Of a stretch of 64,000 nucleotides of DNA, positions 1,285-42,130 are shown one piece after another. Each line of letters opens with the position of its first letter. Within the stretch, counting starts at the first letter, position 1. The translations under genes and the position numbers were made by a program. The stretch is from Marsupella aquatica (lineage: Eukaryota > Plantae > Marchantiophyta). The DNA is taken from the NCBI GenBank assembly GCA_973895155.1, contig OZ316899.1:7691241-7755240 (forward strand). The letters run 5' to 3'. The notes below the pieces were generated by a model that saw nothing but the letters and a program-made list of their open reading frames with translations, did no database searches and was not told the DNA's origin.

Positions 1285-1510
1285 GGACAACGGATAGCGG
1301 ACAACGGATAGCGGACAACGGATAGCGGACAACGGACACGGACAACAGACACGGACAATGGATAGCGGACAACGGACACGGACAACGGACACGGATAGTA
1401 GACAGCAAGCACAGATAGCGAACATGGATAACGGACACGGACAACGAACACGGACACAGACAACTGACACGGACAACGGACACGGATAGCGGACACGGAC
1501 ACGGATAGCG
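1285..1510 (+). repeat. compound minisatellite of CGGACA/CGGACAA/CGGATAG units
   Basis: Read directly from the sequence. Confidence 0.9.
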
Positions 1511-3346: not shown

Positions 3347-4715
3347 ATCGATGACCGATTTCCCGACGAAGAGCTATTCATTGTGGAAATAGCTGATACA
3401 TGGTACCCTGAGATGTTGCAATTTCTCAGCACGTCCAGATTACAGCCAGGGCTAACCCGAGAACAAGCCGCAGTCTTTCTACGCAAGGTCAGACAGTATC
3501 AGTACATTAAGGGTGTGCTACACAGGTATGGAATCAGCAGCACAATTCAAAGGTGTTTGGAGAAGGGAGAGGTAAAACGAGTCTTACGGGCTATGCATGG
3601 GGAGGAAGCCGGCGGACATTTTTCTCCAGTAACCACGTCTACAAAGATATTAAATGTCGGTTACTGGTGGCCCACATTGCACAAAGATGTCTATCAGTTT
3701 ATCAAACAATGCGATCCTTGTCAACAAGCGGGGGGACCAAGGGCGTCCACAAGACATCCTCTGCACCCTATTCTACCTCTGGCACCATTCAAGAAGTGGG
3801 GTATTGATTTCATGGGACCTCTGAAACCATTGACCCATCCTCGGAGAAACAAGTACATAATCCTGGCCACGGATTATGCAACTAAATGGGTGGAGGCCAG
3901 GCTAACGACGAAGGATGACGCAATTACTACGGCTCGATTCATGTATGAGCAGATCTTCACCAGGTATGGAGCACCCTTAGAATTAGTTAGTGATAGAGGA
4001 ACCCATTTTCTGAATGATATAATTAGTCATTTAAATAAGCAGTATTTAGTTAGACATAGACCTACTACTCCTTACCACCCAAAGGCAAATTAATGGGTTG
4101 ACAGAACGAGCCAATGGGATTATAGGAAAAATATTAAACAAAACTGTAGCTCAGATCAAACTCGATTGGGATGATAAAGTGTTTGCTGCTGTTTTTGCTT
4201 ACAATTTAGCCTATAAATCCACTACCGGTCATACACCCTTTTTCTTAACCTTTGGGCAAGAAGCTCTGGTACCCATGCAACTTGAGATACCCACATTTCA
4301 AATTACAATTGAGGAAAGAGTCTCTGAGGAGGAAAGCCTAAAGGAGCGAGAATATAGATTAGAAGCTTTAGAAGAAGCAAGAATGATTTCAGCCGAGAGA
4401 GTAGAATATAGACAAAATACCATGAAGCAGCAATACGATAAAAGATTGAAACCAGTTAGTATCCACACAGGAGATCTAGTATTACTTTATGATAGTAGGT
4501 ATAGTAGGTTCCCGGGTAAACTTTACACTCGCTGGTTAGGACCCTTCAGAGTAAACATGAAGTTCTCCAATGGCTCCGTGCAATTGGCCAACACTACTGG
4601 AGAAATATACCCCGTTTGCATTCATTGCGACCGCCTCAAGAAATACTATATGGACGAAGATGAAGTTGTTTGCGAGGACGCTTCACAATTAAGTGGGGAG
4701 CTATGTGATGCCTAG
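3347..4715 (+). pseudogene. pol: gypsy integrase (HHCC zinc finger, DDE core, GPF motif), frameshifted near 4093
   Basis: H...GGHF...C..CQ; WGIDFMGP; SDRGTHF; TPYHPKAN/ERAN; RWLGPF in ORFs 3341..4093 and 4098..4715. Confidence 0.93.
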
Positions 4716-6088
4716 CCAGGAATCATTAGGCCAGTTTAATTAGTAAAATCAGGAGTGTACCGTAGGAAACACCTTAGTATAGTAACAAAAATAGGGAAAT
4801 ATAAACAATTAAGGGTGACTATGGAACCCGAGCCGAGGCCAAAAGTAAGGACGTCGGGGGAAACACGATTAGGGTTAGGGAGTGCTAAGTACTGGCGGCT
4901 ACTAACGGGAAGGAAGACCAGCCAAGGGGGGGGGGTAAGGACCGAGCGAAAGGACTGGCGGCTCATTTGCAAACACAAGCCAAGCGGACGACTACGGGAG
5001 GCCAACTGCTGTCCGCTGCTCAGGCAAGCACTCGGGGTGGAAGCAGATACCGACGATCAACTCAAGAGGGGTATGAGCAACGTCAATCAAGCTGCTCATT
5101 TTTGGGGATGCCTGTTAGAACGGGTAATTGAGTACATTGGGACCTACCAGGAAAAGAATCAGAGAGAGCGGCTTGAGAACGGCAGGAGTGGAGGGCCGCT
5201 CCTTTTGAGGAGGGCGGACGTGGAGGGAGGAGGCGTGAGTGGGCAGGGCGGGCTCAGATCTCCAAGTTTAGAATTAGGATCAGGACCAAGGGGCGGCCCT
5301 GACACTTAGCTTAGTGGGATTGCGGATCCACTGGTAAGAGCAACACTTGTGCTTGTGCCTTACTGTACATAGGTAGATTACAGTTAGGTAGATTAGGCTT
5401 ACGCTGCAAGGAATTAGGCGGATCCACTACCAGGATAAGTACTTGGGCAGCGGGGAGTTCAGGGCCTTCTTCCTTAGCAAGTTTTTAGTGCACCAACATG
5501 GCTGGGATCAAGTAGTTAAAGAAGCTCTCGGTTAGTTATACTGTGACCCTTGTGTATATTCATGTTTCCTCATACCTAAGAAATGAATAGAGTTGGCCTC
5601 ACGGCTTAGTTCGCAGATCTTGTATATGAGAAGTACTGTTTGTATGGCAAGTGCATGGTATAACTCAATCAGAAGGAGTCATTTTGCTATTTGTGTGTCG
5701 CATTAACTTGTTTGAAGATTGCCCGCATCAACCAAGAAGGGAGTAAGCAAGGTAGTAAGAGTTGGATGTGTCAAGCTTAGAGAGGTCTTAGCGGCTTACC
5801 CAAGCTAGTTGGGGATCATTCCGGCGGCGGAATCCAAACATACCTAAAGGAAAACCGAGAGAGGAGGACAAGGGAAGGCCGAGAATAGGCCGGCTACGTA
5901 TCTCATGACCCGATGAAGGATCTGTCCAGTATATGTGAGTAAAATGTTAATAGCAATAGTAGTAGAAGGAAGTTAGCAGCGTCCCATGCCGCTAAGCCGC
6001 AAAATCGGCCTTGCCAAGAGCGAAACCTGCGGGAATCGGCTTGAGCAGAGGGGTTTCTTGGGTTTAGGGAGCCATGGGACGCACCACA
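4704..6088 (+). mobile_element. 3' LTR (1385 bp), short relative of LTR family C
   Basis: Follows the PPT. The start TGTGATG..GCCAGGA and end GGGACGCACCACA resemble the 29806 and 34407 ends. Contains the shared TTCCG-N4-CGGAA motif at 5819. Confidence 0.85.
4755..5309 (+). pseudogene. truncated remnant of the LTR-encoded ORF (N-terminus only)
   Basis: GMSNVNQAAHFWGCLLE...TY matches GMNTVNQAGKFWGCLLE...TY in ORF 29994..30440. Confidence 0.7.
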
Positions 6089-9004: not shown

Positions 9005-9768
9005 CTCAGAGACCCTCGCCAAGTAAGAGACAGAATCAAAAGTCGATGTTGAACAGTCAATGTTGAAAAGTCAACAAATTTCCCACTAAGAAACTCTTGC
9101 TTATAAAGGAGCGTGGGCCCCAGGAGTCCCGAATAGATCTCAGAGACCCTCACCAAGTAGGAGTAGGGATAACAAGTTGATGATGCTCCGACTCAGAGAG
9201 TCAATGTTGAACAATCAATGTTGAAAAGACAACAAATTTCCTACTAAGAAACTCTCGCTTATATAGGAGTGTGGGCCCCAAGAATCACAAATAGATCTCA
9301 AAGACCCTCGCCGAGTAGGAGTAGGGATAACAAGTCGATGGTGCTCCGACTCAGAGAGTCGATGTTGAACAGTCAATGTTGAAAAGACAACAAAATTCCT
9401 ACTAAGAAACTCTCGCTTGCACAGGGGTGTGGGCCCCAGGAGTCCCAAATAGATCTCAAAGACCCTCGCCGAGTAGGAGTAGGGATAACAAGTCGATGGT
9501 GCTCCGACTCAGAGAGTCGATGTTGAACAGTCAATGTTGAAAAGACAACAAATTTCCTACTGAGAAACTCTCGCTTGCACAGGAGTGTGGGCCCTAGGAG
9601 TCCCGAATAGATCACAGAGACCCTTGTCGAGTAGGAGTAGGGATAAAAAGTCGATGATGCTCAGACTCGGAGAGTCAATGTTAAACAGTCAATGTTGAAA
9701 AGACAACAAATTTCCTATTGAGAAACTCTCACTTACATGCCCTAGGAGTCCCGAATAGATCTCAAAGA
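9005..9768 (+). repeat. 158-bp tandem repeat (about 4.8 units); the last unit is split by the Sola-like insertion and resumes at 26426-26460
   Basis: AGACCCT at 9144, 9302, 9460 and 9618 (158-bp spacing); continuation AAGACCCTTGTCGAGTAG..GGGATAAAAAG at 26426. Confidence 0.92.
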
Positions 9769-10899
9769 ATCAATACTTTCACTAACTCTGGAATATTATA
9801 GTCCACTTGGAATTTTGATAGTGTACTTTTGGAAAATTGAATGTTACTTTTTAGAAATTTGAAAACATAGTTTTTGAGTTTTAAATAAGGGTTCTAAACA
9901 ATTCCAATTTTCTTCCGGATACTTCAGCACCAATTTTGGAAACTTCAAGTTGTGATTTGGTACAAACTTTTGAGACATAACATAAGAAAAGGGGCTTAGG
10001 TTCACACGTTGTTAACTTCATCCCAATGAGTTTTTTAATAGATAGAGACCAGCCACGAAAAGCCACACGACAAGGGGGAACAAGCAACCTCACACACAAC
10101 AAAGAACATGCACAACATACCCCTAAAAGCCCCCAAAAGAAGAGGGTCAGAGAGTCGCACAAGAGTAAAGAGTAAAAGCTCAACAACAAGAGTCGCCCTG
10201 ACACCTAAGGGGCACGACGGAACAAAAGGTGCACTCAAAGCTTCAATGAAGAGTAAGATACTGGAGATGACTACATATGATCATAAAAAGTGGGCGGGAC
10301 CAAGTGTAACAGTCCAGAGGAGCATATAGTTTAGCAAGCAGTTTTGCAAGCTTTATCGATTCCTAGAATGATGCATACAGGAATTCTACATGTCTTGTTG
10401 TGAGGGAGGAGTATGATAGACGGAGGACTTTGCACAAGCCGTTCATCCGCACTCGAGCGCAAGCCACTCTCCTCCACCAACACACGCAATAGGAGAAGGC
10501 ATCGTGAGAACAAAGGCTCCTCTATACTCTCTCCTCCCATCCCACACGCAGAGGGAGAAGCGGCGTGTGAAAAGAGGCTCCTCTCTGCCGAAGACCAAGT
10601 CGCTCCAGAAATAGAAGGGCAAAGAACAAGGGGATTGCAAATGAAAGAGCACCAACATCCAATTTGCATAACAAAACAACATTCCACATTTGTACACATA
10701 AAGATAAGCTTGGTATATTCATAGGAAACATATGTGCCTAACAAAAATTCTGGTTGATGTCAGCGTAGGCATCCCTGAAATCAACCTCCCATGCTCAGAA
10801 ACACCAAAGCCTCCCAAGCGGAAAACACTAAGGCGGGAAACGCAAGCACTTTTTGTTCACACCTCAACACGATGCACGATCAACTAACAAATTCCTACG

Positions 10900-11453
10900 C
10901 GATGATCGCATTCGCACAAAAAATAGCTCCAAAACACCTCCCGATAGCTGACTCCAGAATGCCTCATTCAATCGTTCCAGGATGATGGCATCCACTTGTT
11001 GGAGTCCGCATTATCGCTATCTAGAAATTCTTCCCTTGCCCATTCCTTCAAACTTCTCTCGGAGCTTCGTTTCTTCTTCAAAGGTCCGTAATACTCAGCC
11101 AAATGCTCCCTCTTCCAACGACGCCTCATCTTTCAACATTCCTCCCGACGGATCCTCTTTTGTTGCCCCTTTGCGGCCTTTGTCAGCTTCTTCTCTTTCT
11201 CTTTCTGTTCCTCCTCCACCTCATCTGCAACAGGTGCCTGGTCATTTGTATTGTCATGACTAACCACAGTTTGGTTGCCAAGAGGAGGAATGGTTTCTGT
11301 TCTTGCAACAACTCTAGAGTCAAAACTATCGGATGGCTTCGAGCACACAGAGAAGTTGGACCGCTCCTCATTTGCATTCTCTGCCTGTAATGCTCTAGAA
11401 CTCTTCTCCGCATGTAATGCCGAAGAACTCCTCACTCGTCTCCGAGGTGCCAT
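10900..11453 (-). pseudogene. degenerate hypothetical gene with a charged, low-complexity N-terminus
   Basis: ORF 11133..11453 begins MAPRRRVRSS and is E/K rich; no recognisable domain; left end approximate. Confidence 0.3.
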
Positions 11454-11610
11454 TATGAAAGTTAAGGAAAATCACCACAATCCAAAATGGTTGTCAAGCG
11501 CTCAATTTGGGAAAGGAAGATTTGATCAGAAGGAGAGAGATGTTGGAGACTGAGCCAGAAGTTCATCACAAAACATAACTTGAAGGAGAGAAACAAGCCT
11601 CTTGAATAAA

Positions 11611-12330
11611 GGTGTGTGTGATGAGATCAGGGATTTGCAAGTCATAAGTTCATTATGACATCCTAAGCGAGCCTCATGTGGCACAATTGTGATACTAAAA
11701 CCCGTGACCTGGCACCACACCATCATTGTGGCCACAACGGACCCGAGCCATAGGGCGACATGCGCGCCATTGCAGTGAAAATGAAATTCAGTACAAGTAC
11801 ACACCTTTCACTTTCCGAAGGTCATAATGATCCTAGAGCTGAGTAGTCCGGCCTACACGAGCCTTGTACAGAAAGTGACTGGAACCAACCAGCGCCAACC
11901 TTGCCTATTGTTCTCCCACGGTCCTCAACCCGACAATTAGTACCTGTCGTGTGAATATGGGTGTGTGTGATGAGATCCGGGATTTGCAAGTCATAAGTTG
12001 ATTATGACATCCTACGCGAGCCTCGTGTAGCACAATTATGATACAAAAACACCTGTCAATTTAACCTCAATAACGGAGGAAATTGAGCTCATCCCACCCA
12101 AATCTCATGATCCGGCACCAAACCATCATTGTGGTCACAACGGACACGAGCCAAAGGTCGACATGCATGCCATTGCAGTGAATGTGACACACCTTTCACT
12201 TTCCAAAGCTCAAAATGATCCTTGAGCTAAGTAGTCCGGCCTACACGAGCCTCGTGCGGAAAGTGACTGGAACAAACCTGCTCCAACCTTGCCTAATGTT
12301 CTCCCACAATCCTCAACCCGACAATTAGGA
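11611..12330. repeat. tandem duplication of about 340-370 bp downstream of the transposase
   Basis: GGTGTGTGTGATGAGATC.GGGATTTGCAAGTCATAAG at about 11611 and 11960; both units end ...CCTCAACCCGACAATTAG. Confidence 0.88.
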
Positions 12331-12489
12331 CGTGCCATGCATCACCAAGTGTCTTCCATGCGAGTCTCGCATCGAGAAAGGATTTTAGTTCTCCTCAATC
12401 GTTTCTCTAATGTAAACCTTCACACTTTCCAAAACTCTTGCTGGAACTTTTACCTTTGCATCGTCGGGTCCATTCAACTTGGAACTCTT

Positions 12490-15473
12490 ACGACACAATC
12501 GATTGCTTTTGCAAGCCAAAATCATTGCCGAATTGTGGTTTCAAATTCATCGGTGGGTCAAATAATACCAAATCTTCTAGAGGACTAAATCTTGACCTCT
12601 CACGCTCAGAAGGGTGTCCGACAAAGATTTTTTGCCTCTCTTCTTCATCTTCTTGAAGCTCTCTTTCCAGATTATGCATCACCCCATTGTCTTCGCTTGG
12701 GTTGGTATCCACGTTCTGACCATCCTGACGATACCCAGTTCCATGGTTCGTTCGAGGCCAGAATCCATCAAGTAATGGATAATCTACCCCTGCTAGCGAA
12801 GGAGAGCAAACTGTGTCCTGAAACACAGAAACAGTGTTTTCCCAGTATTGAATCTCTGGACTTCGAAGACGATATCCCTCTGATGTAACATCCTTCCATG
12901 CAGCCATGAGATATAATGGATCAAGTATTCCAAAATGTCATTCGCCCGCTTGTGAGAAGACTCCATCCGCTTGGAATAAGGACTTCCAATTGGAAATTTG
13001 TATTGGTTTCTCTCTAAGTCAAACAACCAAACTGTTTGACCCTTTGTAGGTAGCCAAGGCGTATCAATTTTCTCTCGATATTGGTAGACTGGGACATTCT
13101 CCTTCATTGAGAACAAGATCCTTTTGACAAATGGTCCTACATAAGCTTTGTAAGATGCAACTTTGCGGATGAACCTGGGAACCGGATGTTTCTTCTCGCA
13201 CTCCCAAACCTCCGCCATCAACCCAAAAAATGTGGTAAGCTCTTGATTGTAGATCCTTATCCCAACTCTAGAGAAGAAGGCATCCACATCCTCATGAGTG
13301 TGCCCCACCATCAAAAAGGAAAGAGTTACTGACTCAAACACTCCTCTTAGAACAAGCTCGCTACAGAAAGCCAGAACTGTCTGGTTCTTGTTATCCTTTC
13401 CCAAGTTATCAAGTTGAAGGTGGAGGTGTTGAGGAAGCGCCTTGAAGGGTAGGGATGTTGAAGGCTCTATGCAACTCTTGTGTGGCATCTCTGTGGCATA
13501 TTATCACCAAACCCTGCGAAGTGAGCGAGAGAGATCTTTTTGGTTTCAAGGTATCCTACCTCAAAGGCACGCCGATCCAAGAGGGGTACAAAGATTGGAT
13601 CTGTGACGTCAGAGGTGTTGAGAGCTAGATTGCCGGTCTTATCTCCCACAAACGATTTGAGATCACAAAATAACTTTGCAAGCGAAGAGACTGTAAAATC
13701 ATGATCGCTTGCCCACAAACCAGAAAGGGCAAAATGTGCATAAATTCCAGGCTCCCGTCCATGCATTAACATCCCCGTCAGTGTCATTGGTAGCGGGATT
13801 GATTTGCCTCCTTGGCTCTTGAGTGTAGAAGTCATTTTAGGGATTCCGGTCTTGGCTTGATCCATTTTATCGTGAATCACAGACAAATATTTGTCGAGCT
13901 CTTGGTCCGCCGCAAGTTTTGCTGCATAGTACATACTCCTGCGTGATTGTTGTTCCAACATATACCGTTTGCGCTTTGCCTTAATTTCTAAAATCTTATC
14001 CACCCGTTTCTCCCCCCAAAGTGTTTCTTTAATGGTCGTGCAGAGATCGCATTTTGCAAAGTTGCTCCGATCTTGGAATTGGAATTTGGGAAAATATTTA
14101 TCCAAAATCTTGTAGAAGGTTGGGAGAGAGGGCGAGTGAATACCCAGGTTTTTGTTAAGCTTGCAAGCCTCTTCAAAAACATCTTTTCTCCCGTAACTTA
14201 TTGGAACCCTGAAAACAACTTCCTGCTTGCCTGAAACACCAATTTTGTGAAGATGTGGCATTGGTTCTGCACATTTCTGCAGGATACTTTGAATTGATTC
14301 TGTGAACAACACAACGTAGTCTTTGGTCTTGATGGTCCCTTGATTCCCATGAACACCAACTTTTGCTCCCTCCATGTATCAAGAATACATTGTGTAAAAT
14401 GTTCCTCGAGAAAATCCATGAATATTCCAGAAAGCTTCCTTGCAGATCCTGCTTCCCTTGAATACAATCATGCCTGGGGCGATGGTTTCATTGTCACGAC
14501 AGTGAAGATGATTGAGCACGTAAGTGTGGTGCTCAACATGCAATAGACCATAGTACTCTTCCCTAATGTCAGTGACGGTCTCATGGAGTTGTCGTCGACA
14601 ACAACTCTGTGAGCAACAATCAACCTGATAAAGAGTATCTATGGACACCCGAGACATCTTTTGATTGCGTCTTTTCTTGAGTCATTTTCTCTCCTTCTGG
14701 TTTGAATCTTGAGGATTTCTTTGTTGATTGTTATAGCCCCTTTTTGGCTTGATATATGAGAGAATTGTAACTTCCTCATCGTTACCATCATTCCGATCTA
14801 AAAGATCACTAAGACATTCCATTCCAGGCTCAATCCTAGTTTTGCTGATTGGCCATCGAACTGTGCATGGTGATCCCTCAACAAATTGAGGGAACAGAAC
14901 TTTTCCCAAGCCAGCTTCAATAGCTAGACTCAAAATATTCACACCAACATGATCTTCCCCAACTCGCTCGTTGTTAATGGACGCGAGAGGATGTGGGTTT
15001 ATGATGCAACCTCTTGCGAGCAAGGTTTCTTCGTCGTCCTCATAGAGAAGGGCAAACTTTTTGAACCATGTGCTACGATCTTTCAGATCCTCCGCAAAAA
15101 CCTCTGTCCCCTCCAGTCCGGTGGTTGATTCAGAATTACCTTCAATATTGTCAACTAGGTCATCAATGACATAAGGTGACTCTGTTTGACCTCCAAGATT
15201 CATGTCATTTGCATGGCGGACATCTTGCCGATCCCACAAAACAATAGAGTTCACCGACTCTCCTACTAGATCAGCTCCCGGATGTGGATACGGCAGTTGT
15301 GCGAGGTGAAAGAAAGCATTGTCCACCGCCACACTTATCCGTTCTACTCCAAGCAAAACAGAGTGGCAGGTGTCGAAAGGTAGAACACAAAAAACCTTTC
15401 CACCAGCAACTGGTTGTTCATTGATAAGCAGGTGAACGACATCTCTAGGTAGAAGCTGCGTTCTTGAAGCCAT
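12490..15473 (-). pseudogene. Sola1-like (DUF7869-type) DDD transposase with N-terminal tandem Tnp1/DUF8039-like domains; two in-frame TGA stops and frameshifts
   Basis: ORFs 14682..15473, 14379..14657 and 13467..14375 share one frame. Motifs: CC...CC, ICKEAFWNIHGFS, FAKCDLC, HDKMDQAKT, LQLDN.GKDNKN, FLMVGHTHEDVDAFFS. Confidence 0.82.
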
Positions 15474-15991
15474 TTTGGATCTGAGGAAAACAATTGCAAC
15501 AAAAACATCTTTTAAAACATCCTACACGAGGCTCGTGTGAAAGTCTCTAACTCTAATGTAAGCAAATATCATAGAACTGAAAATTCAACTCCTGTTTAAA
15601 CAAGCAATGAAGACAGTCATCTAAAAAGTTGAATGTTCTTTCATTAAAGAGAAAATTCTATGTATCTTAGACGAGGGGAACAACATATGTATCTATATAC
15701 TCATGTTGTTGCACTGCAAATCAATGGAACAACGAACATGTGAACAATAAGACATATTGTAGTGTGTTATCTATGTATATGGAAAATGTAAATCTCTCTC
15801 TCTCACGCTTGGCCCTCAGATTGTTTCACGCTCTTTCACGCTCGCCTCGAACGATACGCTCTTTCACACTCGCCTCGGACTATAAAAGGACCTCGGACCT
15901 TGGACCTTGGATCATTTGTGTTTTCTATTTGTTTTTGCTCAACTCATCGGTGCTTGACATTGTTGTGGAGGAGTTCGCACGTGCGAAGGGA

Positions 15992-18900
15992 ATGATGACT
16001 TCTTTGGCAAAAAATGACGCTGGATTACTTGCTTTGGCTGCATTGAGGAAGCTCAAAGGTAATTCTGACCTACATTTCTCTCTTTTCTATGGATTGTGCT
16101 AAACTTGAGTCTGCTCTACACGAGAGTCATGTAGAATGGGTCTCTTTCATCGAACCATACTCTCTTTTTGAGAGCCCTTATGTCAGAATTTAGAATTTCC
16201 TGTTTAGTTCTACGCGAGTCTCGCGTAGAATCGTTTCTCCAATCTTGGAAGAAATGGATTTCTACGCGACTGTCATGTAGAAACTCAGGTTCTGTAGAGT
16301 GTTAAATACTTGTTCGGAGATAGTATCATTTGGAATCAAAACATTGTTCATGTGACTTTGTTCTTTCAACTTTTCTAGAGGAAGCGCTCATCGCAAGGAT
16401 GATTTTGAGAAGATTTAGGGATTGTTGCAAAAAAGTATTTCTGCTTTTGATATGAGTTTGATGGAGAATTCCATTCTCCAAAAAGCGTTGCAGGATGAAA
16501 AGGAAGCAATAGAATACGAGCGGGAGCAAGTGTTTGCAAAGTATCGATGGGCACAGATCCAGTGTCACGCGATTGACATGGGTCTTAACACCAAAAACGT
16601 CACTATGGGTGCCAAAATTATCTCCTTGTTCCTGAGGATCACGAAGGGATGTTGTGAAGGCCGGTAAACACCAATTTATGCCCTTAACACCAGACTATCA
16701 TAGCAAGACTCCGTCACACATCACCCAAGCTCAATCCCTAAGAACCAAGGTTGGGAATCAGATCCTGTGCTCATGATAGTTTTGGTGAGAAGGGGTCTTC
16801 ATATCGGGCCCGTACACACAGGGCCTAGCGCTACGGTGCGCATATGTCTATACGCATGCTTACTGTCATAGGTATATTTCTATTCCGCCACCGGAATGTT
16901 CCCATAAACCAGTGACTCCTGACCGGGGCAATGGCTTAGGGACTTCTAAGCCATTGCCCCACCACTTTGCCATTCCACTCTCAGCAATCAGAGTTGTGAC
17001 AGCCCTCGCCCAACCCACTTCAATGCACCCGGTACACCTCTCAGTGGCGCTGCTGGTCCCATCATACACTCAGATTTCTTCACACACACACACATCCATG
17101 AGAGAAATGAGTCTTGAGAGGAAAAATCAATTAGATTCAAAGATGTGCACAATAGTTCACTGAGAACACTTGATCCGAACACTAGGCCCGAAGGCTGTCT
17201 CCTCCAGATTGCGACGTGCTTGCCCTGCAAGCCCCGTGCTTGCCATGCAAGCTCAATCCTGAACCTGAGCCCGACTCACTCCAGATTGTGACGGCAAATT
17301 TGGACTCGAACCAATCCGTAATTGCCTTGCAAACTCAATCCTGAACTCAACCTCCTTCATTGCACTTCATTCTTGGGGGCACGTATAGATCTCACACCTC
17401 CATTTGTCAAGTACGCATGCACAGTTGACTCGACTTCAAAGCTCGTACCAGGCCTAATGGCGATCTACCCCAGACTATAATGAGGCCCGGCCTCATGCTT
17501 GCCCTGCAAGCTCAGCTCTGGCCATAAATCCCTTAGTGCTCTCTACCAGACAAAGGCCGGGACTCCCCATGGATCACGTAGCCTTACCAGACTAAACTGT
17601 AAATGCTCCTCCTGCTGCCCCTCAATCAGTATCTCAGCCTCCTTAATGTGCGCACCGCAAATCACATTGAAATCCTCCCCACAATTTACAATCACCAACA
17701 CATCACCTATCACCAAGGCTCTATATCGGGGGAAAAGGACCCAGTTGTGTTGCCTACTAGAAAGAGCCACAATCCAGCTTGCAAACCTGGCCAACTGTTG
17801 TTGTGAAGCGTGGCTGATTACTCCCTAAGTAATAGCACAACCAAGCTCTCCCCAACACACAGCTTCCAAGCCCAGCCTTCCTTGCACAGAGCTCCTCCCT
17901 GCTGCTCAATCCACATGAGATCACACAACTGAAGTTCTCCCCCCCTTGCCTCTACCGGGGGGCTGCTCTATATACTCTCATACTGAGCCCAAATGGGTGG
18001 ATACTACGCTGCTGGAGCCCCATCCCAGCCCTAACAGAGCCGCCACTATCTCTAACTACTGAACCCTAACTCGCAACTTTATTTCTATCTCGAATTGGCT
18101 ATGTACTTCGGATTTGGCCCTCCTCCATGGTTTTTGCGAGCTTGCGCCTCCTCTCCCAATTTCTCTATTCAACCATTTGCTGCGTGGATAGTAGCGTTGG
18201 AAGCGGCTTGAGCTCCTCTTTCCAACGAGGTCAATTATAGCCGATTTGGTCAAATACACAGAGAGTTAATCCCCCACAACCGAGAGAGGGTACTCACTGC
18301 TACGCTAACCCGAGTTACATAGCTAACCCGAGTTTGGCTAACCTAGCTATCCTATCTAACCTGAGTAGAGCTAACCCGTGGTCTCGGGTTAGGCCGCTAC
18401 CCACTATCCGCTAACCTAGGCTAAGGTGAGCCTGAACCCGAGCTTGCCTATGCTAACCCGAGCCTGAGTTTAGGCTAACCCAAGTTCAATCTAACCCGGG
18501 ATCAATCTAATCCGAACCCGGGTTAAGCCTAAGCTGAAGCTGTGCTGACCTGAGCTAAGCTGAAGCCGTGCTTACCTGAGCTAAGCTGAAGCCGTGCTTA
18601 CCTAATCTAAGCCGTGCTTACATGAGCTAAGCCGTGGCCGAGCTTAGGTTAACCCGAAACCGGAGCCGAATCCGCTCATTCCGGCCATAAGTTAACCCGT
18701 CACACTAATCACACCGTATCTTCCTTAATACACCTCTATGTCCCAAGTGTTTTATATCGATTTTACTCGCCTTGACCAGATCTTTCCAATGCTCTTTACA
18801 GATCCGGATTTGGTGACATATTGAAAGAGATATGGTCACCGACCACCCGCGACATAGCTTTTATTTCCCTACTCTTAACGCCATGATTGCCCTTATTCTT

Positions 18901-19280
18901 GCCATCTTGCTAATTGTTATGCAATATCAATAGCTACTCCTTGCATACAGCAGCCTAGTTAATCAGATTAAAGAATAAGGACCATGTCATCGGCGTCACA
19001 TCCAGCATTTGACTACTTGCGACGTAGCGGCAAAGTCCATCAAAGCTTCTCTTGAGATGGAGAAGTTTTGAGATCGTGAAGTTCATGACTTGCGACAGGA
19101 GCTGGCCGATGGCCGAGAGAGGGAAAGACAATTGGATACCAAAGTGCGATGGATTGAATTGGGAAAAAAAATTGTTGCCTTCATGGCCACATGTGTGCGC
19201 ATACTTTGAGTTAGGGTTCTCTTATGTTTCTAGCGGATCGGATTGTTTTCTTAAATCTGGACAATGTTTTGACTCCGAAT
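15992..19280 (+). pseudogene. coiled-coil hypothetical gene with a probable intron (about 16059-16378), split by solo LTR B2
   Basis: QKALQDEKEAIEYEREQVFAKYRWAQIQ ends at the TSD and charged coding-like sequence resumes after 19005; GT...AG boundaries. Confidence 0.4.
16563..19000 (-). mobile_element. solo LTR, family B copy 2 (2438 bp)
   Basis: TGTCACG...CGTCACA on the + strand; perfect TSD TCCAG (16558-16562 and 19001-19005). Confidence 0.95.
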
Positions 19281-19531
19281 GATGATGAGCTCAAATGGCT
19301 CATAAGACTATCTCCAGAGTTCTGATAGTCATTTTTTGCGGGACCGTTTACACGCCAAAGAGGCCATTTTGTAAAGGATGTTTTGACATCATTTTGCTTG
19401 TAATGAATCAATAGTTTGTCGTGCAGATGTTTGACATATTTCTCCTTGTCTTCTAGGAGTTTGCTCTGTTTTATTTCCGTTTTGACAGGCTTCGGATTGA
19501 AACTCCAACGGTTGCAAAACTTGAGAATATT

Positions 19532-22500
19532 TTGGCGAATGTGAATTCATGGTCTTTTGAATTGCAACCAGTCAAAGACAACTACCGTTTGATTGTGAGG
19601 GGAGTTAAAACAGAAAATGGGCAAAGAAACTTTGTGAGTTTTGGCACTCTCACAGACTGTACAAGATTTGCGTCCCCAAAGGACAACCCATCTCTTCTGC
19701 TGACATTGGAGTCTGAGAGTTCTTGGAATTTCAAGCAGATGGTTGCTCCACTTCATGGGTTTTGCTCAGCACATTGTCTTGAACCTTACAGCCAGGACGC
19801 AAATGTTGTCTCGTGCGGTTTCTTTGATCCTTTGGTGGACAGATGGCTCTCACCTGATCGGGTCTTTACGGTTCATGAAATAATTCTGGGGCTTGGACAG
19901 GTCTCCTATGTCATGAAGCAATCGGAATATTTTATCTCTCGGACACGAGAGGTGGATCACAAATGCGGATGAAGATCCCAGACGATGACTGGAGGAGAAA
20001 GATGACTATTTCTCCAAATGTTGTGTTCATGAAACACTTCAATGAGACAAAGGTGGAGGAATGGATTCAAGGGCATCCAGTAATCCAAGACTTGGTACGC
20101 CCAAAGAAGAAAGAAGTTGGTGAAAAGAGAGTGACGATGATGATGGGGAGGGAAAGGACGAGGATGACTTGTCCGCCTCTGGAGAGAGCAAGTCCCATGA
20201 AATGATATCAGTGTATGAGTCAGAAAATGAGGATGACGGAGAGGACGGAAGTGTCCAAGAAGAGAGCAAGAAGACTTTTCAGAATCGGGCGGGGTCAGAG
20301 AATGAGTCAGAGTCAACAAGTTTAGAAGGTGGAGTTGAACCAACCAACGATGATGTTGAGAGTGGGGAAATTCAACAAAATGAGGTCATCCCCCCAGCAA
20401 AGCCTCCAATAGAGAAGCGATACGCAAAGACTTCAAAGGGAGTTTCGCCCAGGAAGGGGAAAGCTGGTGTCGTGTCAGAGTCATCCACACCCAGTTGGAA
20501 GAAAAAAGGAGTGGACAAAAAATCACCATCAGAGAAACTAGGCCTGAAGAAGGTTGATTTTGAGAAAACAAAAGAAGAAGCTAAATTACCTCGGAAGAGA
20601 GTGAGAGTTGTTGATCAAGCAGATGAGCCGCCTGTGGCAACAACAGGCTGCAAGAAGGTTCAACGGGAAGAACAAAAAGAAGACAAGAAACCATCTCGAA
20701 AGAGAGTTCTTGTTTCTGACCAGTGCGAAGTCGTGCCTCAAGTGAAAGGTGGAAAAAATGTATCTCCGGTTGATAAACAAGAAGAGGCAACGTCTTCTCA
20801 AAAGAGAATTCAAGTTGTCAAGGAAGCGCAAGGAATCAAGGACAGAATACGAAAATCAAGCAAAGCAAAGAAAGTCGCTTCACCAACAAAACCTGAGGAG
20901 GAGAAACCGTCTCAAAAGTCACGGGTTGGACAGAAATCTATGTCGGTCAGGAAGAAAGTTGAGAAGGTTGAACCGGAGATCAGGACGCTGAAGCAAAAGG
21001 GAGTCGTAAAAGATCCTGCACCAAAGGGAAAGAAAAAAACAAAACTTGATGTTGAATCAGTAGTTGTGGAATCAAGGGCAAAGCCTCCTAAGCGAAGGGG
21101 AACGACCACAAAGTTGGCTGAAATTGTTGTGAAAACTCCCATGGTCAGAGCCGTGGAGAAGAAGGCCCCAAACGTTGAGAAGAAGGTTGTCATCACCTCT
21201 CAAGTTGTCGTTCGCAAGCCCAAGAAGGCAAAGAAAAATCAGGAAGCTGTGGATATTGACGAGAACCCTAGTTCCACGAAGCTAGTTGTCGACCGTGCTC
21301 GACTGGAGATTGCAAAAAAAACATTGGAGTTGAATAAGTCTTGGTATTGTTTCGGGATATCCAAATTTTTTTCTGTCCCGGTTGAAAACATCCATCCCCC
21401 TCCTACAAAGATGAATGAGAGACTCCTCAATGAGGAGCATGTCAACCATCTTGCGCAACTGATGATGAAAAATGCAGGGCAAGAACCTTTACCTGCAGAT
21501 TTGGTTCCTTACAAGATGATCCACGGAGTACCGAGTTTAATTGACCTTGCGGGAAAGGATATTGACACCAAGAAGCTTGTGGAATTCAAGTTCTTTGCCA
21601 TCAGTGGTCAACATTCCACAGTGGCCGCCAAGAAAATTATTCAGAGTTCAAAGACCCAACCATCTCTCATGCAAACAGCCAATTTACTCAAATATTGTCG
21701 AGCGCGAATTCTCAAAGGGTCAACTCCAGTGAAAGTTCTTGTAGAAATTTCACACGCGAACAACCTTCAGGCGGAGGCACATCGGTTTTCATCTCCATTT
21801 ATTGATCAATTGAAACATGCAAGAATGCAATACAATGATATGGGGCAACCAGCTCGTCCACTTCCATCGAGTCATAAATCTCTAGAATTTCAGGTAGGTT
21901 CTCCATGAGATGTGAACAAAATTCAGATAGTTTGTCCTTCTCTCCTTTCTACGCGAGAGTCGTGTAGAGCCTTTCCAATATTTTGGGCTAACTTTGAGTT
22001 GTTTGGTCTTTCCTCCCAGGAGTATGAAACACTTGGGAAAGGTACGTTAAAGGTGAATAGCATCAACGAGTACAATTGGATTTTGTTTGCTCCCGAGAAG
22101 CTCTACTCTTTATGGAGAGAGGTTTGCAATAATTGCCTCAAGGGTAATCTTTTGGATTCAACCGGACAAATGACAGGAAAATCAACAGAAGCAAAATAGT
22201 TGACAGGGACAACATTCCGGGTTTTTGAGGGTGCCGTAGAATCCGACATCTTGGAAATCCTCCACAAAGTGAATTTGGGGGAGGCGCTTTTGATGAAAAA
22301 GAAACATGCTTTGACTGATCTTCCCGCCATGTGAGAATTGGCAAAAAAAGTAAAGTATACTGACAAACTTAAGGGGGCAATACTTTGATTCTATCAAGAG
22401 AAGTACGAAGGGGTTTTCTTGCAAGGATCGACTTGGGGTGATGTAGTTCAGCAATATAATTTCACTGATGAGGAATTGGATCGTTGTTGTGCAATGGTGG

Positions 22501-24925
22501 ACACTGGATATTTCAAGAGCCTTGTGAAGGTGTCATTAAAAGCAGAGATGCCGGAGCCACTGAAAGAATAGGTTGAGAAATATTCACCAAAAGAGGTTTG
22601 GCGGCCATCTCCGTGCAAGGATGGATCCTTACCGAGTCTTCTATACTGGAAATCTGCTCGCGTCTGCTGATCCTCCTTTTGATTCGGCTAGCTGCAAGGA
22701 GTCAACATTGGCATCTCTAGCGATTGTTGATTTGACCCATACTGGAAAACTAGTTTGGACGCAGTCCAAAATCTTCAACTTCTTGAAGATCGTCGTGAAT
22801 ATCCCAACAAATGATCTGGTAACAGTTGTTTTTTTTGTTCGTCCTGGTATTATTCTTGCAAGAATAATTGAAGCTGTTCGAGATCTCCCGGAGAACTATA
22901 ATGCGCACCTTGAATATGGTTTGTTCATGAGGAGTTCTATGGTTAATGCTCCTTCGCAACACATGAGAGGCGATGCGGACATGGTTCTTTTCCTTTGCGT
23001 CTCCCAAGATCGGGTTCCTGATTGGGAAAAGCATTTCAAGGATTTTACTGGTCACTTTGTGTTGGAGGAGTCCGACCTCGAGGAGACAATCAAGCCAAGT
23101 CAAGAGGATTATTCCAATATTTTTAAGGAAGATATGCAGGAGACATTGATCTCACGACTTGAAGGCCTTGTTCCTTTCAAGTTGACGACTGGACGGCCAT
23201 TCACATTGAATATTAAGCGCGCCCAGTCGCATCCTACAGAGTTTTATTCATGCATTTTCTTTGAGGGAGGAAATTGTCCTGGATTTTTTCACAGGAGGGC
23301 AGGTACTGAAGAATGCATTGATGCTTGAGCGTGAGTGTTTTTCATTCTGCTCTGACCGTGAGGATGTCTCTGACCTCACGGCTTATGCAAAGAATCTTAA
23401 ATTGTTAGTTCCGGTTGCACAGTTTGCTAAATCATTGTGGAAACCTCCTGGCCTTGAAGGGAGTTTGACTCGCAATTCCAATGCTAGTGGAGCAAAAGAG
23501 GGCCAGCATTATCAGATTGCCGCTACAGTTTTACATTACGTCGGGGTGGAAGCGGAGGAAAAGTTTCTGAGTTCCATTGGGGAGATGAGAATTGGTCCAT
23601 CAGTAGTTCCAATTGCAAGTCGTGAAGGATTTCCTCTTCTAATGGCTGAAGGAGGGTATGGTTTGATAGATAATTTTGAAAACTTACAGGCGGGCACGGG
23701 GTTGATTGCATTCAACGAAACTCTAGAAGATGTTGTGGGTGATGTCTCCCTATGCGCGTATTGTGTAGATTCTCAAAATTTGTTTGACCCTCCAGGGTTA
23801 GAGTGCAACAGAGGTGTTCAACAATCTCTTCTGGTTGATGCTTCAGTTCTTCCACGTGGCCCAATTTTTGATGATTGTGAGGCAAAAACTACACTCGAGG
23901 ATGTCGCAAAGGGGGTGGTGGATTGTGGACCCTTAAAAGAGATTGTTGTGGAGGAGGTTGGGATTGTGGAAAAAGATCACACTCCGATTGAATTTCAATG
24001 CAATGACAATGCTGACTCTCGTAGCGTTGAAGTAACAGGAGAGAATGATAACTCATTTTCTCTCACAGCAAATCTTCCTGAGGTGTCAGAGAGGCGAGTC
24101 GATTGTGCGGAGGCAACCAATGAGGCAGGTGCCAATTTCCTCTCTCTTGTCTCAAGTCATAAAGTTCTAAGCATAAACCAATGTCCTCTCCCATCTCCGG
24201 ATCCAATGGATAACAAAATGAGGATTGACAATTGCCTTAGTGATCTGTTGGATCAGGATGCGGTTCTAGTCAGGACTAATGGGTGCCTAATAACTTGTGG
24301 ACAGATGAGTTGCCTGAGTCCTAGAAATTGGATAAGTTCCGATATTCTAAATGCCTACTTAAGTCTCATAGTGGAGAGGAATGAACATTCCGACAGGGAG
24401 CTTCTTAAGTGCCATGTGTTTGACACTTGGTTCTATACTGCACTGACATTGAATGGCTACTCTTACCGCTGCGTGGAGGCTTGGACTTCACGACTGAAAT
24501 ATTTCTTAAGTGATTGTCATCGAATATTTGTCCCCATTCACGAAGGTGGCGATCATTGGGCGTTAGTTATGATTGACATGGAACACAAGTATTTAGAATA
24601 TCTCGATTCTCTCCATAACAATAGGCCAGAGGTTCTTGAAAACTTAGCCAGATATGTCGAGGATGAAATTCAAAGCAAAAGTCAGAAGCAAGTCTTGGCT
24701 ACTCTATGGCCAAAACATAGTCCCAAGGACATCCCAAGACAAATTGATTACTATAATTGTGGTGTGTTTGTTATGAAGTTTGCAAACTATCGTAGTTTGG
24801 ACCTTCCTTTTGATTTCACAGGAGAGGACATAGATTTGGAGAGGAGAGAAATCAATTTAAGTCTATTCAGGAATAGATTGAGCTTTCCTCCGCAATACAG
24901 TGATTTTTGCACGAGACGCGTGTAG
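19532..24925 (+). pseudogene. multidomain cargo gene: K/E-rich region, ParB/Srx-like domain, beta-class N6A/N4C DNA methyltransferase-like fold, Ulp1 (C48) protease
   Basis: ParB-like: VPVENIHPP..NERLLNEEHVNHLAQLM...FFAISGQHS..AA (about 21370-21770). Intron GT 21894-AG 22019. MTase-like: PSRILQSFIHAFSLREEIVLDFFTGG..LKNALMLERECFSF (about 23222-23350). Ulp1: WISSDILNAY, DHWAL, YLDSL, QIDYYNCGVFV. Confidence 0.7.
24250..24880 (+). CDS. Ulp1/SENP-like C48 cysteine protease domain (His-Asp-Cys triad intact)
   Basis: C-terminal part of ORF 23261..24925: IFVPIHEGGDHWALVMID, EYLDSL, PRQIDYYNCGVFVMKFA. Confidence 0.92.
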
Positions 24926-25064
24926 AGGGTGAGAGACGGGGTATTTGATTTCAAGGAGTGACTTGACTTCAAATGGTCTTTGGTCAAGACTGTTCCAATG
25001 ATTAACCATCCGGATTTGATATTTTTATGTTTGCAGAGTTTGTTCCTAAACTCCACTTAGAGAT

Positions 25065-26085
25065 CAAGCGAAAGCTCTTGATTTTGACCTTAATAAGGTT
25101 TGTTTCGATTCCGTAAAGAGTAAAAGCTCCGGACCATTTTGGAGGCTCATATTTGTGATGGGCATTCACTGGGGAAGACGGGGCGGGAACAAATTTATGT
25201 ATGTGGAGCGTCCAGGACTTCACAAATTTTTACAAGTGATTTTCAGGTATTACAATGTCGCGATTTGGACTTGCGCGGGAAGGCCGAGAACAAATGAAAT
25301 GATGGATCTTGTTTTCAACGATGCTGAACAAAAGCAGTTCAAGTTTGTATTCACCCAAGAAGAAACGTTTGACACTGGCTTTTTGAGGTCAGATATTACG
25401 GATGGGAAGGCAAAGTAACATACTTCTCAAGGAAATCCAAACTGTTTGGGATCATTTTGGCAATAAATATGGTCCGACAAATACTGTTCTCATCGATGAC
25501 TCTCCTCTGAAGTGTTTCGCAAATCCAAATGTTAACACGTTGTTTCCAGTTCCATTTGTTCACAACATGGGAGGCGACACTTTTCTGATGGAGATGTTGC
25601 TTCCACTTCTTCAAAGAATGCACAATGCTTTTGATGTAAGACACTTTCTGAATGTTAACTACCCAAAATGGTCCGCCTACAACAAGGGTGAAGCCCAAAG
25701 GAGGCATGGTGATATCTTTGCAGGACTCACTCAAGCCTGGGGGCACCGCGTTGCTGGCATCGTCGATAATTTCACTGTCCTTGATCACACGGCAGACGAG
25801 ATTTCTTGGGAAGTGAAGCATACCGTGCAAAGTTTGCCACTGGTGCAGGATATGAGTGACCGTGACATCAATTCAATTGCTAAAGGTCTACTTGGAGATG
25901 GTTATTCCGGCCCATATTTGCAAAATAAGCGGCAATTTGTTTGGGAAGTCCTAAAACTAGGGACCTTACTTCTAAGTTTAAAAACTTGTATCCTAAAGAC
26001 GCTTGCAACCGAGATAGAAAGGTTGATAAGTCAGGAAGTAGACTTACTTGCTCAAATATGTTTTGTAGCAACACACATTCAATGA
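25065..26085 (+). pseudogene. FCP1/NIF-like HAD-superfamily phosphatase domain protein, frameshifted
   Basis: KLLI-FDLNK across a frameshift near 25083; YVERPGLHKFL...YNVAIWTCA; KEIQTVW...NTVLIDDSPLKC..NP. Confidence 0.85.
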
Positions 26086-26460
26086 TCGTTATTTAAAAAT
26101 TTGGAGACTTGTAACATTGAGGGGAGGCCTATTACAAGTAAACAATTGTTATGGACTTTTGTATGGTTCCCGTTAGTGGGTGACAATGAAAATGTGACAT
26201 TACTCATGTGGCTATTCTCCACAAATTCGTACGCCAAAGATGTATTTTACATGGATTTGGAAATTTCAACTGGTGTTTAGGAAACTTGAAAGAGTGTTCT
26301 AGAAATTCCAGTTCCAAGTTTTGGAAACTTCATTTAAGGTTGTTGGATAATGTATTTATTTAATTTGGAAATTTTACCAAGCCACTTTGGAAAAAAGAAT
26401 TTCCAGAATTAGTGAAATCACTAATAAGACCCTTGTCGAGTAGTAGGGATAAAAAGCTGA

Positions 26461-29400
26461 TGTAGGGCAAAGAGGGGATTGTGGCCCGCACGAGGGATTG
26501 TGGGCCCGCACGATGGGACCTTCAAGACCACAACGTTGTCGCGAGGACTTAAAGTTAGGGGCTCCTCGGGCAAACTACGTGTTTCTGGCTGCGATCAGGA
26601 CAGGTGACAAGCACTTTTCGGAGCGAACTCTCACTCCTTTATATTTTTTACTTTTCTCACAAAGGTTACAATAGGTGCCCTTGAGTAAGCTTGCCCGCAA
26701 GAGTCTGGTAGCTGGCCCTACGGCGGGCCGCTACCTCTAACTTGTCGAGTAGAACTCCTCAAGTGACTAACTACTCAAAATTTGACGGAAAAACTATCCT
26801 CCTTAGCTCACAAAACCAAAAACTTGACTAGCTACTCCACTAGTCTAAAACAGCTCACACGGAACTCGGGCCTGGACCAACAAGGCTCCAAACTCGAGAA
26901 ATCCTCGCCTGGATCGACAAGACTCCAAACTTGAGAAATCCCCGCCTGGATCAACGAGACTCTAGACTCAAGAAATTCCCCGCCTGGATCAAAAACTCCC
27001 CACCTGGATGCCCCTCTGAGTTAGCATGCACGCAACCCAACCGGGAGGCCTCGCCCATCATCCCCTTTAAAAGCCATTCCTGAGCCAAAATCTTTCAGCA
27101 CGACATCCTCCCCCAGTAAACCTGAGCAGCCCTCTCGTAAGTCAAATGCACCCCTTTGTGCCCAGCCATGTCAGCATCATGGCTCTCTTTGAGAATTCGG
27201 TCTTTCTCATCCTTAGTATCCACAACCCTCTGCAACAACTGACTTGGGTCCTTATGCCTTCGCCACAAGTAGCCCTCCCTCAATAGGAACTTGTAAGATC
27301 TCTTCCGGATCTTGACGAACTCCTAGTAACTCCACTCTGGTTGCTTCTCCAAAGTGCTAATGTAACGCCCGATATCCAGTAACTCTCCCGAGTAGAGTTC
27401 TTCCTTGAACTCTAGACTTCCAACACTTTTGGTTCCGGTCACCTCGCCAACTCTAGTTGCTACCTCATTTCCGAATCTCGCCCTTGACAGCATGTCGGCA
27501 ACCGGATTATTTGCCCAATGAAATAGTTCCTCTCCTGATGGAGTGCCACCTTGGCACCCCAAAGCTCCCTCTTAACTTGGGCATATCTCCTTTGCCTTTC
27601 CGTAAATTTTTTTGCCCCAAATCCGATCGCATACCTTTCCCCATTCTCATCATCTTGCCCAACAGCCCACCCGGCTGCAAACGGACTCACATCAACAGTC
27701 ATGATCAGTGGTCGCCCGCTCTCATAGTCCGCAGCTTGGAGAACTGGCGGGCTCATGAGAGCGCTCTTAAGCTTAGCCATTGCTTCACTATGCTTGGGTA
27801 GCCATCTCCACTTAACCTTTTTCCTCAACAGCTCATAGAGCGGGTCTGCCAGGTGCAAGAAGTGAGGGATCCAGATCTTGTAAAAGACACAAGCACCAAG
27901 AAACCTTCAAACTTCCGGCACCGATTCTCAATCCTTCATCTCGCTAACAGCTCTCACCTTATCCATGTTTGGCTTCCTTCCATAAGATCCGCACATCATC
28001 AATGAACGGTCTTGCTTTTTCCGGAATGAACGGCTCCAAGATTTTACTCATTGCATTTTGCATGTGCGCAACTGAGTTCGTCGCCCCTTGAGGAAGAGTG
28101 CACATCCTCAAGAGGCCCAGCGGGGTCCTCATAGTCGTAATGTCTCGGCTCTCTTGCGCCAACTGGAACTGGTCGTAACCCGAAAACAAATCACCCATGG
28201 AGTAGATCGCCCTCCCAGCGAACTCCTCCGCAATCCATGAGTGGCCCAACTCCCACATTCCTGACGGTCACCTTGTTCGGAGGTTGCATATCCTGAATGA
28301 ACCTCAAGCTTCCATTCTTCTTTCTCACTGTAAACCATCTATTCGAGTAGGGAGCATCAGACCTCTCGAGAATCCTAGCACTCAGCTTCTCCTTAAGCAG
28401 TTCTGCAAGCTTTGGAGCTAAAGCCCGCGGAACCGAAATCGGTTTCAGATCCCACGGAACATGAGGGACAGTAAAGATGACCATCGATGTCACCTTACTC
28501 GGATCCGCACAACCAATCTCCTCAATCAAAAATGAGAATGCCTTGCCATGCTCCATTATCATCTTTTGAAATGCCACTTGCTCCACCTCCGTAACTAACC
28601 CATCCAAACCAATCTTAAGCTTCGCCAAACTCTCTTGAGTAAACTTATGCCCTATCCGATTAGTTGGCCTCAGCCTTGGTTCCAACCTTGCTTGATCCAT
28701 GACCTCCATCGCATTGTCCGGCAAAGGTATCGCCGTCGGCCTCACCTTCTTGTCAACCGTCTTGTATTTGGTACTTGAGTATACAAGCACGGCCATAGAC
28801 GAGTACTGCCTTTCCAACTCCTTCTCCAGCTTGTCCCTTCCCAAGTTAGACTCTGCACATTCGAGTGGCTCTTCCTCTCCATTATCCATCGTGTTTTCCC
28901 CTTCACAAGGAGCTAAGGAACGAGCACTCCGCCGATCCACTCTTTTCAACAAAGTGCCAAGTCGTTTTCCGGACCTGGACCAGATTCGGCACTCTCAGTC
29001 CTCAACCCTTTCCTATTCCTCTCGGGGTATTTACAAATGACAGCAAACAGCAAACAGTAACAGAAAACAGAAACTGGTAACAGGAAAATGAGTGGTAATT
29101 TTTTTTGAATTTCTTTTGAAATTTTTTTTTGGAAAAAAAAAGTTTTTTTTTCTTCGAATTTTTTTGAAATTTTTGCTAGCGCCCAAAGCTAGCCAAAAAA
29201 TGTTGTAATTTAAGTTTTTTTGGAAAATGTGACTTTTTAGAAAATATTTTGACATGGTTATTTTTCCTAGTAACAGTAACTTTTTTCTAGTAACAGGAAA
29301 ATTTTTGCTGGTACCAGTAAACCTGTTTCCTGTTTACTGTCACGCATGCCATACCCTTCCTCTCGTTTCCAGGTAAAACAGCCGGAAATTGAACCACCTC

Positions 29401-41600: not shown

Positions 41601-42130
41601 AGACAGGAACTACGTCCAGAATCGCAAGGCCGAACTAGAAAGGATCGTGTGCGACATTCAGGGGAGATAGAAGGCGACTAAGGATAAGCAAGAGAACTGG
41701 GGTCGAAGCTGGCGCGTGAACTGAAGAACTGGTGCACTGCAAAGGATCGGCCCCCTTTTTCTACCCTGAGAGCTCGCTGATCGCCCAACGCCTCCCCGTC
41801 GCTTATAGGCCGAGCCTTTCACGCTTGCAGTGTACCGGCCACTCCACCGGTCCGGGTCAGCACGTGTCAATGGCCGCCTCCCAAAGTTTGTTATACGGAC
41901 CCGAGGGGGAAAGGTGAGGGCCTATTACATGCTCGCAACCCGGGCGTGCAAATGGCAACCCGCCGCCAGCCTGAACACAAACGCCCCTTATTGACTAATG
42001 ATTTCCTACTCATAATGGCTACCTAAATACTCTCATTATGCTAATAATTATGGCCTAAGATACCCCTAAGGCGCGTGCTAAGCGTCGTTAGGCCGAATCA
42101 CTCATTACCCACCATACCGGCGGCGTCACA
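38633..42130 (-). mobile_element. 5' LTR, family A (3498 bp), containing a degenerate long ORF
   Basis: TGTGACGCCGCC...GACGTGACA on the minus strand; directly upstream of the PBS and gag; colinear with 59285-63285 except for a deletion of about 0.5 kb. Confidence 0.92.
39496..41657 (-). pseudogene. LTR-encoded protein, family A (stops, frameshifts, internal deletion)
   Basis: ORFs 41046..41393, 40133..41086, 39828..40097 and 39496..39831 are homologous to the 855-aa ORF; ATG (MSHTIL) at 41657. Confidence 0.88.

Follow-up and report, generated by a model that had tools for sequence, protein, structure and literature searches.

ParB-methyltransferase passenger genes and palindrome arrays have both been published for algal transposons. 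The Ectocarpus element Sola1-1_Ec32 carries, opposite its transposase, an accessory gene with a ParB-like domain and an N4-cytosine/N6-adenine (N4C/N6A) methyltransferase domain (PMC12477816; cited papers are represented here and below by the parts of their text available to us), and the algal papers propose, reporting no test in those parts, that ParB-bearing passengers bind and methylate their own elements. We describe a land-plant counterpart in a 64,000-nucleotide stretch of the liverwort Marsupella aquatica (contig OZ316899.1, positions 7,691,241 to 7,755,240 of the forward strand; the whole of this stretch is called the window), which is repeat-rich eukaryotic DNA crowded with retrotransposon fragments. 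A large DNA transposon of 16.7 kb (9769-26425) carries, as a passenger, a gene with a ParB-like domain (the ParB gene), of which this copy is broken. Among published proteins, those most alike in kind are the accessory proteins of algal transposons. We give roughly an even chance to the reading that its intact protein is a non-methylating self-recognition factor or scaffold, which would bind the palindromes of its own element and bring a SUMO protease to chromatin against silencing. A literature search did not find the land-plant family, the double loss of catalytic motifs, the Ulp1 and NIF fusions or the subfamily-specific palindromes, with the proviso that the supplements of PMC12477816 and of a review of eukaryotic adenine methyltransferases (PMC4738411) may name such proteins; in its available text the review does not describe a land-plant ParB-methyltransferase family.

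The gene and its protein family

The gene runs in the order ParB fold, middle region, methyltransferase-like fold and Ulp1, and is followed by a phosphatase-like gene on the same strand:

20124..21893, + strand: exon that encodes an acidic/lysine-rich stretch and, at about 21330-21860, the ParB/Srx-fold domain with its SGQHS box
21894..22019, + strand: phase-0 GT-AG intron, its position conserved in relatives; contains one palindrome
22020..22608, + strand: conserved middle region, where ParB proteins carry their DNA-binding domain; aligns with P0030, P0060 and P0080
22609..23428, + strand: beta-class amino-methyltransferase-like domain with degenerate motifs (Pfam PF01555, E 0.032; DLTH at 22729-22740; LDFFTGG at 23279-23299; frameshift near 23217)
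24326..24859, + strand: Ulp1/C48 SUMO-protease domain (PF02902, E 1.7e-29), sharing its reading frame with the C-terminal end of the methyltransferase
25050..26085, + strand: NIF/FCP1-type phosphatase-like gene, frameshifted (PF03031, E 1.2e-8 and 7.2e-6)

The true start codon of the ParB gene may lie further upstream than 20124. The preliminary description of this DNA had proposed a transposon-borne gene with a eukaryotic GT-AG intron (21894-22019, with GCTAAC inside) and an N-terminal ParB-like domain in which ISGQHS replaces the GxHR motif. All of this stands: inverted ends and a 4-bp target duplication enclose the gene; ISGQHS is found at 21600-21617; two liverwort gene models, P0030 from Calypogeia fissa and P0060 from Riccia sorocarpa, match the opening residues of exon 2 (E 3e-13 and 8e-12) and continue across the junction; and in the related loci L001-L004 a GT-AG intron interrupts the protein at the matching point (in the window it is 126 nt long and reads GTAGGT...TCCCAG). 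What that description lacked were three stop codons, a second frameshift, the in-frame Ulp1 domain, the NIF domain, the enclosing transposon and the palindromes. The window copy is dead: stop codons interrupt it at 22197, 22332 and 22386, and its frame shifts near 22566 and again near 23217; the stops and the first frameshift all fall in the middle region, and the last frame is open through 24922 and includes the Ulp1 domain.

Four public runs from 2 studies contain 28-39% of the sampled words, and no RNA run is listed among the public runs containing the sequence. In related contigs each of the five breaks is missing from most or all of the depth there, and we infer an intact copy, with no contig piece spanning the whole gene. 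The differences between the window copy and these contigs are mostly non-synonymous (25/34 and 27/40 of those listed), which is expected of decay and uninformative on selection. Some contigs from runs X1 and X2 omit parts of the gene (22348-23152) or join 23186 to NIF-like sequence, suggesting internally deleted derivatives.

At E<=0.001 phmmer recovered 71 clusters, and a profile search added a set of 44 proteins; the named family members are from two liverworts and one fern. Locus scans with alignment A4 found no member in viral or metagenome contigs, and a homolog search with alignment A1 (lengths 1734-4950) gave no match, which is weak evidence. The fern models have the order ParB, middle region, methyltransferase-like domain and NIF, as does L004; because neither has Ulp1, we read Ulp1 as an addition in the window lineage. 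Its His, Asp and Cys are all present (in DHW, YLDS and QIDYYNCG), residues that we take, from their motifs, to be the triad. In the NIF domain the DxDxT motif is replaced by DLNK in the window, DLNG in L004 (5924-7108) and SLCG in the fern protein P0079, and to judge from these motifs the domain may be a third degenerate enzyme.

The N-terminal domain is predicted with confidence (pLDDT, the predicted local distance difference test, 91.5 from 44 alignment rows), and its modelled core fold places it in the ParB/Srx superfamily. Both structure searches rank ParB/Srx entries first: in VIA-align the top 8 of 32 rows are ParB-N, PadC, KorB, SerK, Srx, SbnI, Atu1540 and Srx (Z 7.8-4.8; superfamily labels in part presumed), and in Foldseek the top 11 rows are Noc, ParB, PadC or Srx (probability 0.99-1.00; best E 1.6e-3, none at E<=0.001). 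Sequence searches of the PDB recovered no ParB and no methyltransferase. Box II reads GQHS (106/124 proteins matched the pattern, one of them falsely), and the Arg of GxxR occurs in 0/105 motif-bearing proteins, 95 of which have Ser instead. An R-to-A change at this position abolished nucleoside triphosphate (NTP) binding in the ParB folds tested (PMC12704722), and because the required Arg is missing family-wide, clamping driven by cytidine triphosphate (CTP) appears doubtful for this family. The ratio of non-synonymous to synonymous substitution rates (dN/dS) is 0.07-0.20 for the ParB domain within subfamilies, and 0.21-0.25 for the middle region in relatives. Atlas matches for 21330-21893 are unnamed eukaryotic clusters, DUF3723 and ParB_N; look-alike clusters in basidiomycetes, sponges and molluscs, together with fungal DUF3723, hint that the ParB-like domain is more widely spread among eukaryotes.

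The methyltransferase-like domain

The preliminary description had assembled a beta-class pattern across the frameshift and had remarked on DLTH at the expected catalytic site, with DPPF earlier. These motifs are all present (PSRILQ at 23222-23239, LDFFTGG at 23279-23299 and ERECF at 23327-23341; DLTH at 22729-22740 and DPPF at 22669-22680), and catalytic and SAM-binding motifs are lost throughout the family. Motif IV reads DLTH in the window, DTTH in L001, L002, P0071, P0079 and P0080, and DVHG in L004, with [DSN]PP[YF] lost in all three subfamilies; the motif I loop varies (FTGG, FSLGYG or FCSG instead of FxGxG); and the Glu of motif II, which binds S-adenosylmethionine (SAM), is Cys in the window copy and Cys or Ala across the family, versus Glu in 11/11 viral controls. 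P0060 was left out of this motif census, as its methyltransferase region is not reliably alignable. These losses across three subfamilies bear out the probable inactivity that had been proposed. The domain is under purifying selection (dN/dS 0.21 over 180 codons, dS 0.59, L001 versus L002, a ratio from this single pair), and because selection persists despite the loss of DPPY/SPPY and of the SAM-binding Glu, a conserved pseudo-enzyme is the simplest and best reading of it.

That the domain descends from beta-class enzymes we consider highly probable; that it resembles methyltransferases only superficially and has some other alpha/beta fold seems to us quite improbable. The unbroken relative L004 was modelled from family rows only, with no known methyltransferase in the alignment. 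In a Foldseek search with this model DNA methyltransferases fill the first 19 rows of the 27 listed (4 at E<=0.001; template modelling score, TM, 0.35-0.42), led by M.MboIIA (E 1.4e-4), M.RsrI, CcrM and M.BceJIV, and the model has its strands and helices in the order expected of the permuted beta-class layout. Support from sequence is slight: a profile built from 29 beta-class sequences, viral and E. coli, matches only motif X-I of the window. In a profile comparison the hhalign score (29.95) is above all 20/20 block shuffles (best 24.89) and above the reversed control, and the same pair of domains has been published on the same kind of element. Several results pull the other way: the L004 model is weak in this domain (pLDDT 51, 7 rows); VIA-align, which matches its two halves separately, puts unrelated alpha/beta folds first (best Z 7.3, versus Z 5.1 for M1.HpyAVI); the hhalign match covers only the last 48 columns (probability 17%); the Pfam E-value is only 0.032; and the atlas has no usable match for the methyltransferase half. 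A homolog search with the N-terminal half of the domain gave no match (weak evidence), and tblastn of the C-terminal half against phages gave only chance rows (E about 4). The fold named in the preliminary description is thus recovered by Foldseek on a relative, and is not placed first by VIA-align.

Two accounts would keep the domain catalytic. It could be an active amino-methyltransferase of a non-canonical sort, relying on the Asp of D-x-T-H and placing N6-methyladenine (6mA) or N4-methylcytosine (4mC) on its own element; the motif IV strand-end Asp and the D/E-x-F of motif I are retained in all three subfamilies, the domain is under purifying selection, and activity is predicted for the comparable algal proteins (PMC12477816). 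We nevertheless consider this improbable, given a motif IV without both prolines and the aromatic residue, an FxGxG loop variable in length and sequence, and the change of the motif II Glu to Cys or Ala. Still less credible, and very improbable in our estimate, is the proposal in the preliminary description that catalysis has shifted to the DPPF upstream. DPPF is present in the window, and among the differences listed for the related contigs none lies within DPPF or DLTH (20 rows stand outside those listed, and the two long contigs covering both motifs each have one unlisted difference). Alignment of the relatives speaks against the proposal: DPPF is restricted to the window subfamily, the other two having EFC and EFL/EFI there, it precedes the strand that ends in DLTH, DTTH or DVHG, and the SAM-binding residues are also gone.

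The enclosing element and its palindromes

The boundaries of the transposon, its other features and the palindromes of the first type are as follows:

9769..9793, + strand: left terminal inverted repeat, 25 bp, preceded by the AAGA target duplication (9765-9768)
26401..26425, - strand: right terminal inverted repeat, 25 bp, followed by the AAGA duplication (26426-26429) and then by satellite again
12491..15521, - strand: decayed DUF7869 transposase-like gene (Pfam PF25273, E 7.2e-32 on 12796-13500)
16563..19000, no strand assigned: later insertion, a solo-LTR-like (long terminal repeat) repeat with TG..CA ends and a 5-bp TCCAG duplication
11663..12259, no strand assigned: three palindrome copies (11663, 12012 and 12241), downstream of the transposase
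15522..16280, no strand assigned: four palindrome copies (15522, 16116, 16210 and 16262), between the divergent genes
21949..21967, no strand assigned: one palindrome copy, in the intron

The ends are imperfect inverted repeats (20/25 bases complementary), and the insertion with its AAGA duplication split one 158-bp satellite unit. The DUF7869 gene, also broken by stops and frameshifts, lies upstream of the ParB gene and diverges from it; its motifs and position make it the probable transposase core. Chapaev elements, like Sola elements, make 4-bp duplications. The element is likely of Sola type, because its 4-bp duplication fits Sola (PMC10741241), an assignment based on one insertion with terminal inverted repeats and on a transposase identified by Pfam DUF7869 only. 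A CACTA/EnSpm class was rejected: CACTA sits 11 bases inside the repeat, and the junction with the satellite is a 4-bp, not a 3-bp, duplication.

The pattern CTACRCGA-N3-TCRYGTAG occurs at 8 window sites with at most 2 mismatches (15 strand matches versus 0.07 expected, a count inflated by drawing the pattern from the window sites themselves). All 8 sites fall within the element, none of them in a mapped domain, and at 3 mismatches 12/13 sites are inside. Within 11603-12339 a block of about 350-400 bp is duplicated, with palindrome copies in each half, and this layout suggests that new palindrome copies arise when neighbouring DNA is duplicated, a route also reported for VANC motifs. Related loci carry other palindromes, neither of which was found in the window: a second type, GCTCRAACTTAAGTTYGAGC, has 19 sites in L004-L007 (upstream, in the first intron of L005 and L006, and further downstream), and a third, CCCTATGGC-N6-GCCATAGGG, has 9 sites in L002 and L003, upstream. 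Each of the three protein subfamilies is paired with its own dispersed palindrome; ParB domains that share a palindrome type have 72-89% identity, those of different types 26-40%. Repeated cognate palindromes, as expected of a ParB clamp, are thus present, and binding of the protein to them is predicted only.

Under the reading to which we gave an even chance, the intact protein would dock on the palindromes of its own element, probably as a dimer, with the middle region, the methyltransferase-like fold or both making the contact. The methyltransferase, though dead, would work as a DNA-binding or scaffold module, Ulp1 would strip SUMO from nearby chromatin or silencing proteins, and the element would thereby remain expressible, an end that VANC proteins achieve for VANDAL elements by other means. 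A bolder, tentative version, which we think rather less probable, is that in liverwort and fern transposons a ParB-methyltransferase fusion from bacteria became a lock-and-key system without catalysis. The parS-like palindrome of each subfamily would evolve together with the protein that docks on it, and the SUMO protease or phosphatase-like domain brought in by this protein would lift silencing.

A number of observations weigh against these readings, beside the self-derived pattern noted above. Ulp1 is missing in L004 and the fern models and is hence not general; linkage of the ParB gene to the transposase is seen in this window only; no palindromes were found in one of the seven loci (L001, which begins within the coding region); one first-type match (2 mismatches) also occurs in L004; kin share motifs; and three palindrome types are too few to show coevolution. 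The palindromes may instead be bound by the transposase. In that case they would be sites of the transposase or of another element protein, and the ParB-methyltransferase-like protein would help otherwise, for example in assembly of the transposition complex or by sequence-nonspecific chromatin binding. Single-sequence scans matched no helix-turn-helix family in the middle region, 7/8 window sites flank the transposase gene, and transposases can activate their own copies sequence-specifically according to the available part of a 2026 preprint (10.64898/2026.08.24.746577). Against this, the sites are far from the termini, their clusters in L002-L007 lie ahead of the ParB gene and within its introns, and canonical ParB-fold proteins recognise palindromes (PMC12704722); we regard it as the main rival, though a less likely one, to self-recognition by the ParB-methyltransferase-like protein.

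The surroundings of the element show further structure. The 158-bp satellite array lies at 9041-9768 and 26426-26462, interrupted by the transposon, and its unit continues past the right end. The solo-LTR-like repeat (2.4 kb) is 92% alike to two other window copies (46577-48999 and 1503-3346), and once it is subtracted the native element measures about 14.2 kb. Short open reading frames flank this repeat upstream of the ParB exon (15930-16562 and 19028-20199, + strand); they may be extra exons or a small gene, and had no match to Pfam or to the ParB-gene family. An 864-aa coiled-coil frame (60186-62777, - strand) and related repeated frames (40136-43498, - strand), of no clear family, lie beside retrotransposon genes.

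Comparison with known systems

The land-plant family shows that a methyltransferase part can stay under selection after loss of its catalytic motifs, and its three protein-palindrome pairs make self-recognition directly testable through cross-binding. If the self-recognition reading is true, the family would be a convergent VANC counterpart in seedless plants. The bolder lock-and-key version would mean that sequence-specific anti-silencing arose a second time, independently, in land plants, and the family could then supply new programmable modules for DNA binding.

The preliminary description had invoked the bacteria-derived N4C enzymes of rotifers and liverwort sperm. N4CMT (rotifer) and MpDN4MT1 (Marchantia) are likewise beta-class folds in eukaryotes, and N4CMT structures are among the Foldseek matches. 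No special tie to these enzymes was shown: the rotifer enzyme is one of many beta-class matches and not the best, and the Marchantia enzymes, MpDN4MT1 included, carry TSPPY, whereas the window family has no such motif and lies inside a transposon. The term ParB has 0 occurrences in the available text of the N4CMT or MpDN4MT1 paper. Bacterial ParB, Noc and KorB with their parS-type sites share the ParB/Srx fold followed by a conserved middle region, and repeated palindromes near and inside the gene (PMC12704722). The window family differs in having GQHS for GxxR, in the lack of a helix-turn-helix match in single-sequence scans, in that no ParA was seen, and in that NTP binding and clamp sliding are doubtful.

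VANC motifs differ from family to family and are located in introns and between genes (PMC5735166). The palindromes resemble them in being short, family-specific and placed in the introns and intergenic parts of the very element whose gene encodes the factor, a likeness of motif layout only. VANDAL elements belong to the Mutator-like superfamily, and their motifs are non-palindromic, 9 bases long and attended by demonstrated binding and demethylation (PMC5735166), whereas the properties of the window family are predicted from sequence. The red-algal Plavaka proteins PAG3/PAG2 are among the closest published relatives in kind, with a ParB-like accessory protein beside inverted-repeat arrays and proposed binding to its own transposon (10.1101/2025.02.11.637652), and the authors already make the VANDAL comparison. 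PAG3 is, however, fused to a 2-oxoglutarate (2OG) oxygenase, the methylase there being a separate SET-fused gene, and the PAG repeats are tandem arrays, whereas the palindromes of the window family are dispersed, introns included, and subfamily-specific.

The other algal relative in kind, Sola1-1_Ec32, is likewise a giant DNA transposon, with an accessory gene on the strand opposite the transposase, a ParB-like domain followed by an amino-methyltransferase, and proposed binding to its own element (PMC12477816, in the main text of which 'palindrom' and 'Ulp1' have 0 occurrences). Its protein is a predicted methyltransferase, whereas the liverwort and fern family has lost the catalytic and SAM motifs in three subfamilies; and, as likened by description, the window family differs in its land-plant host and in its attached Ulp1 and NIF domains.

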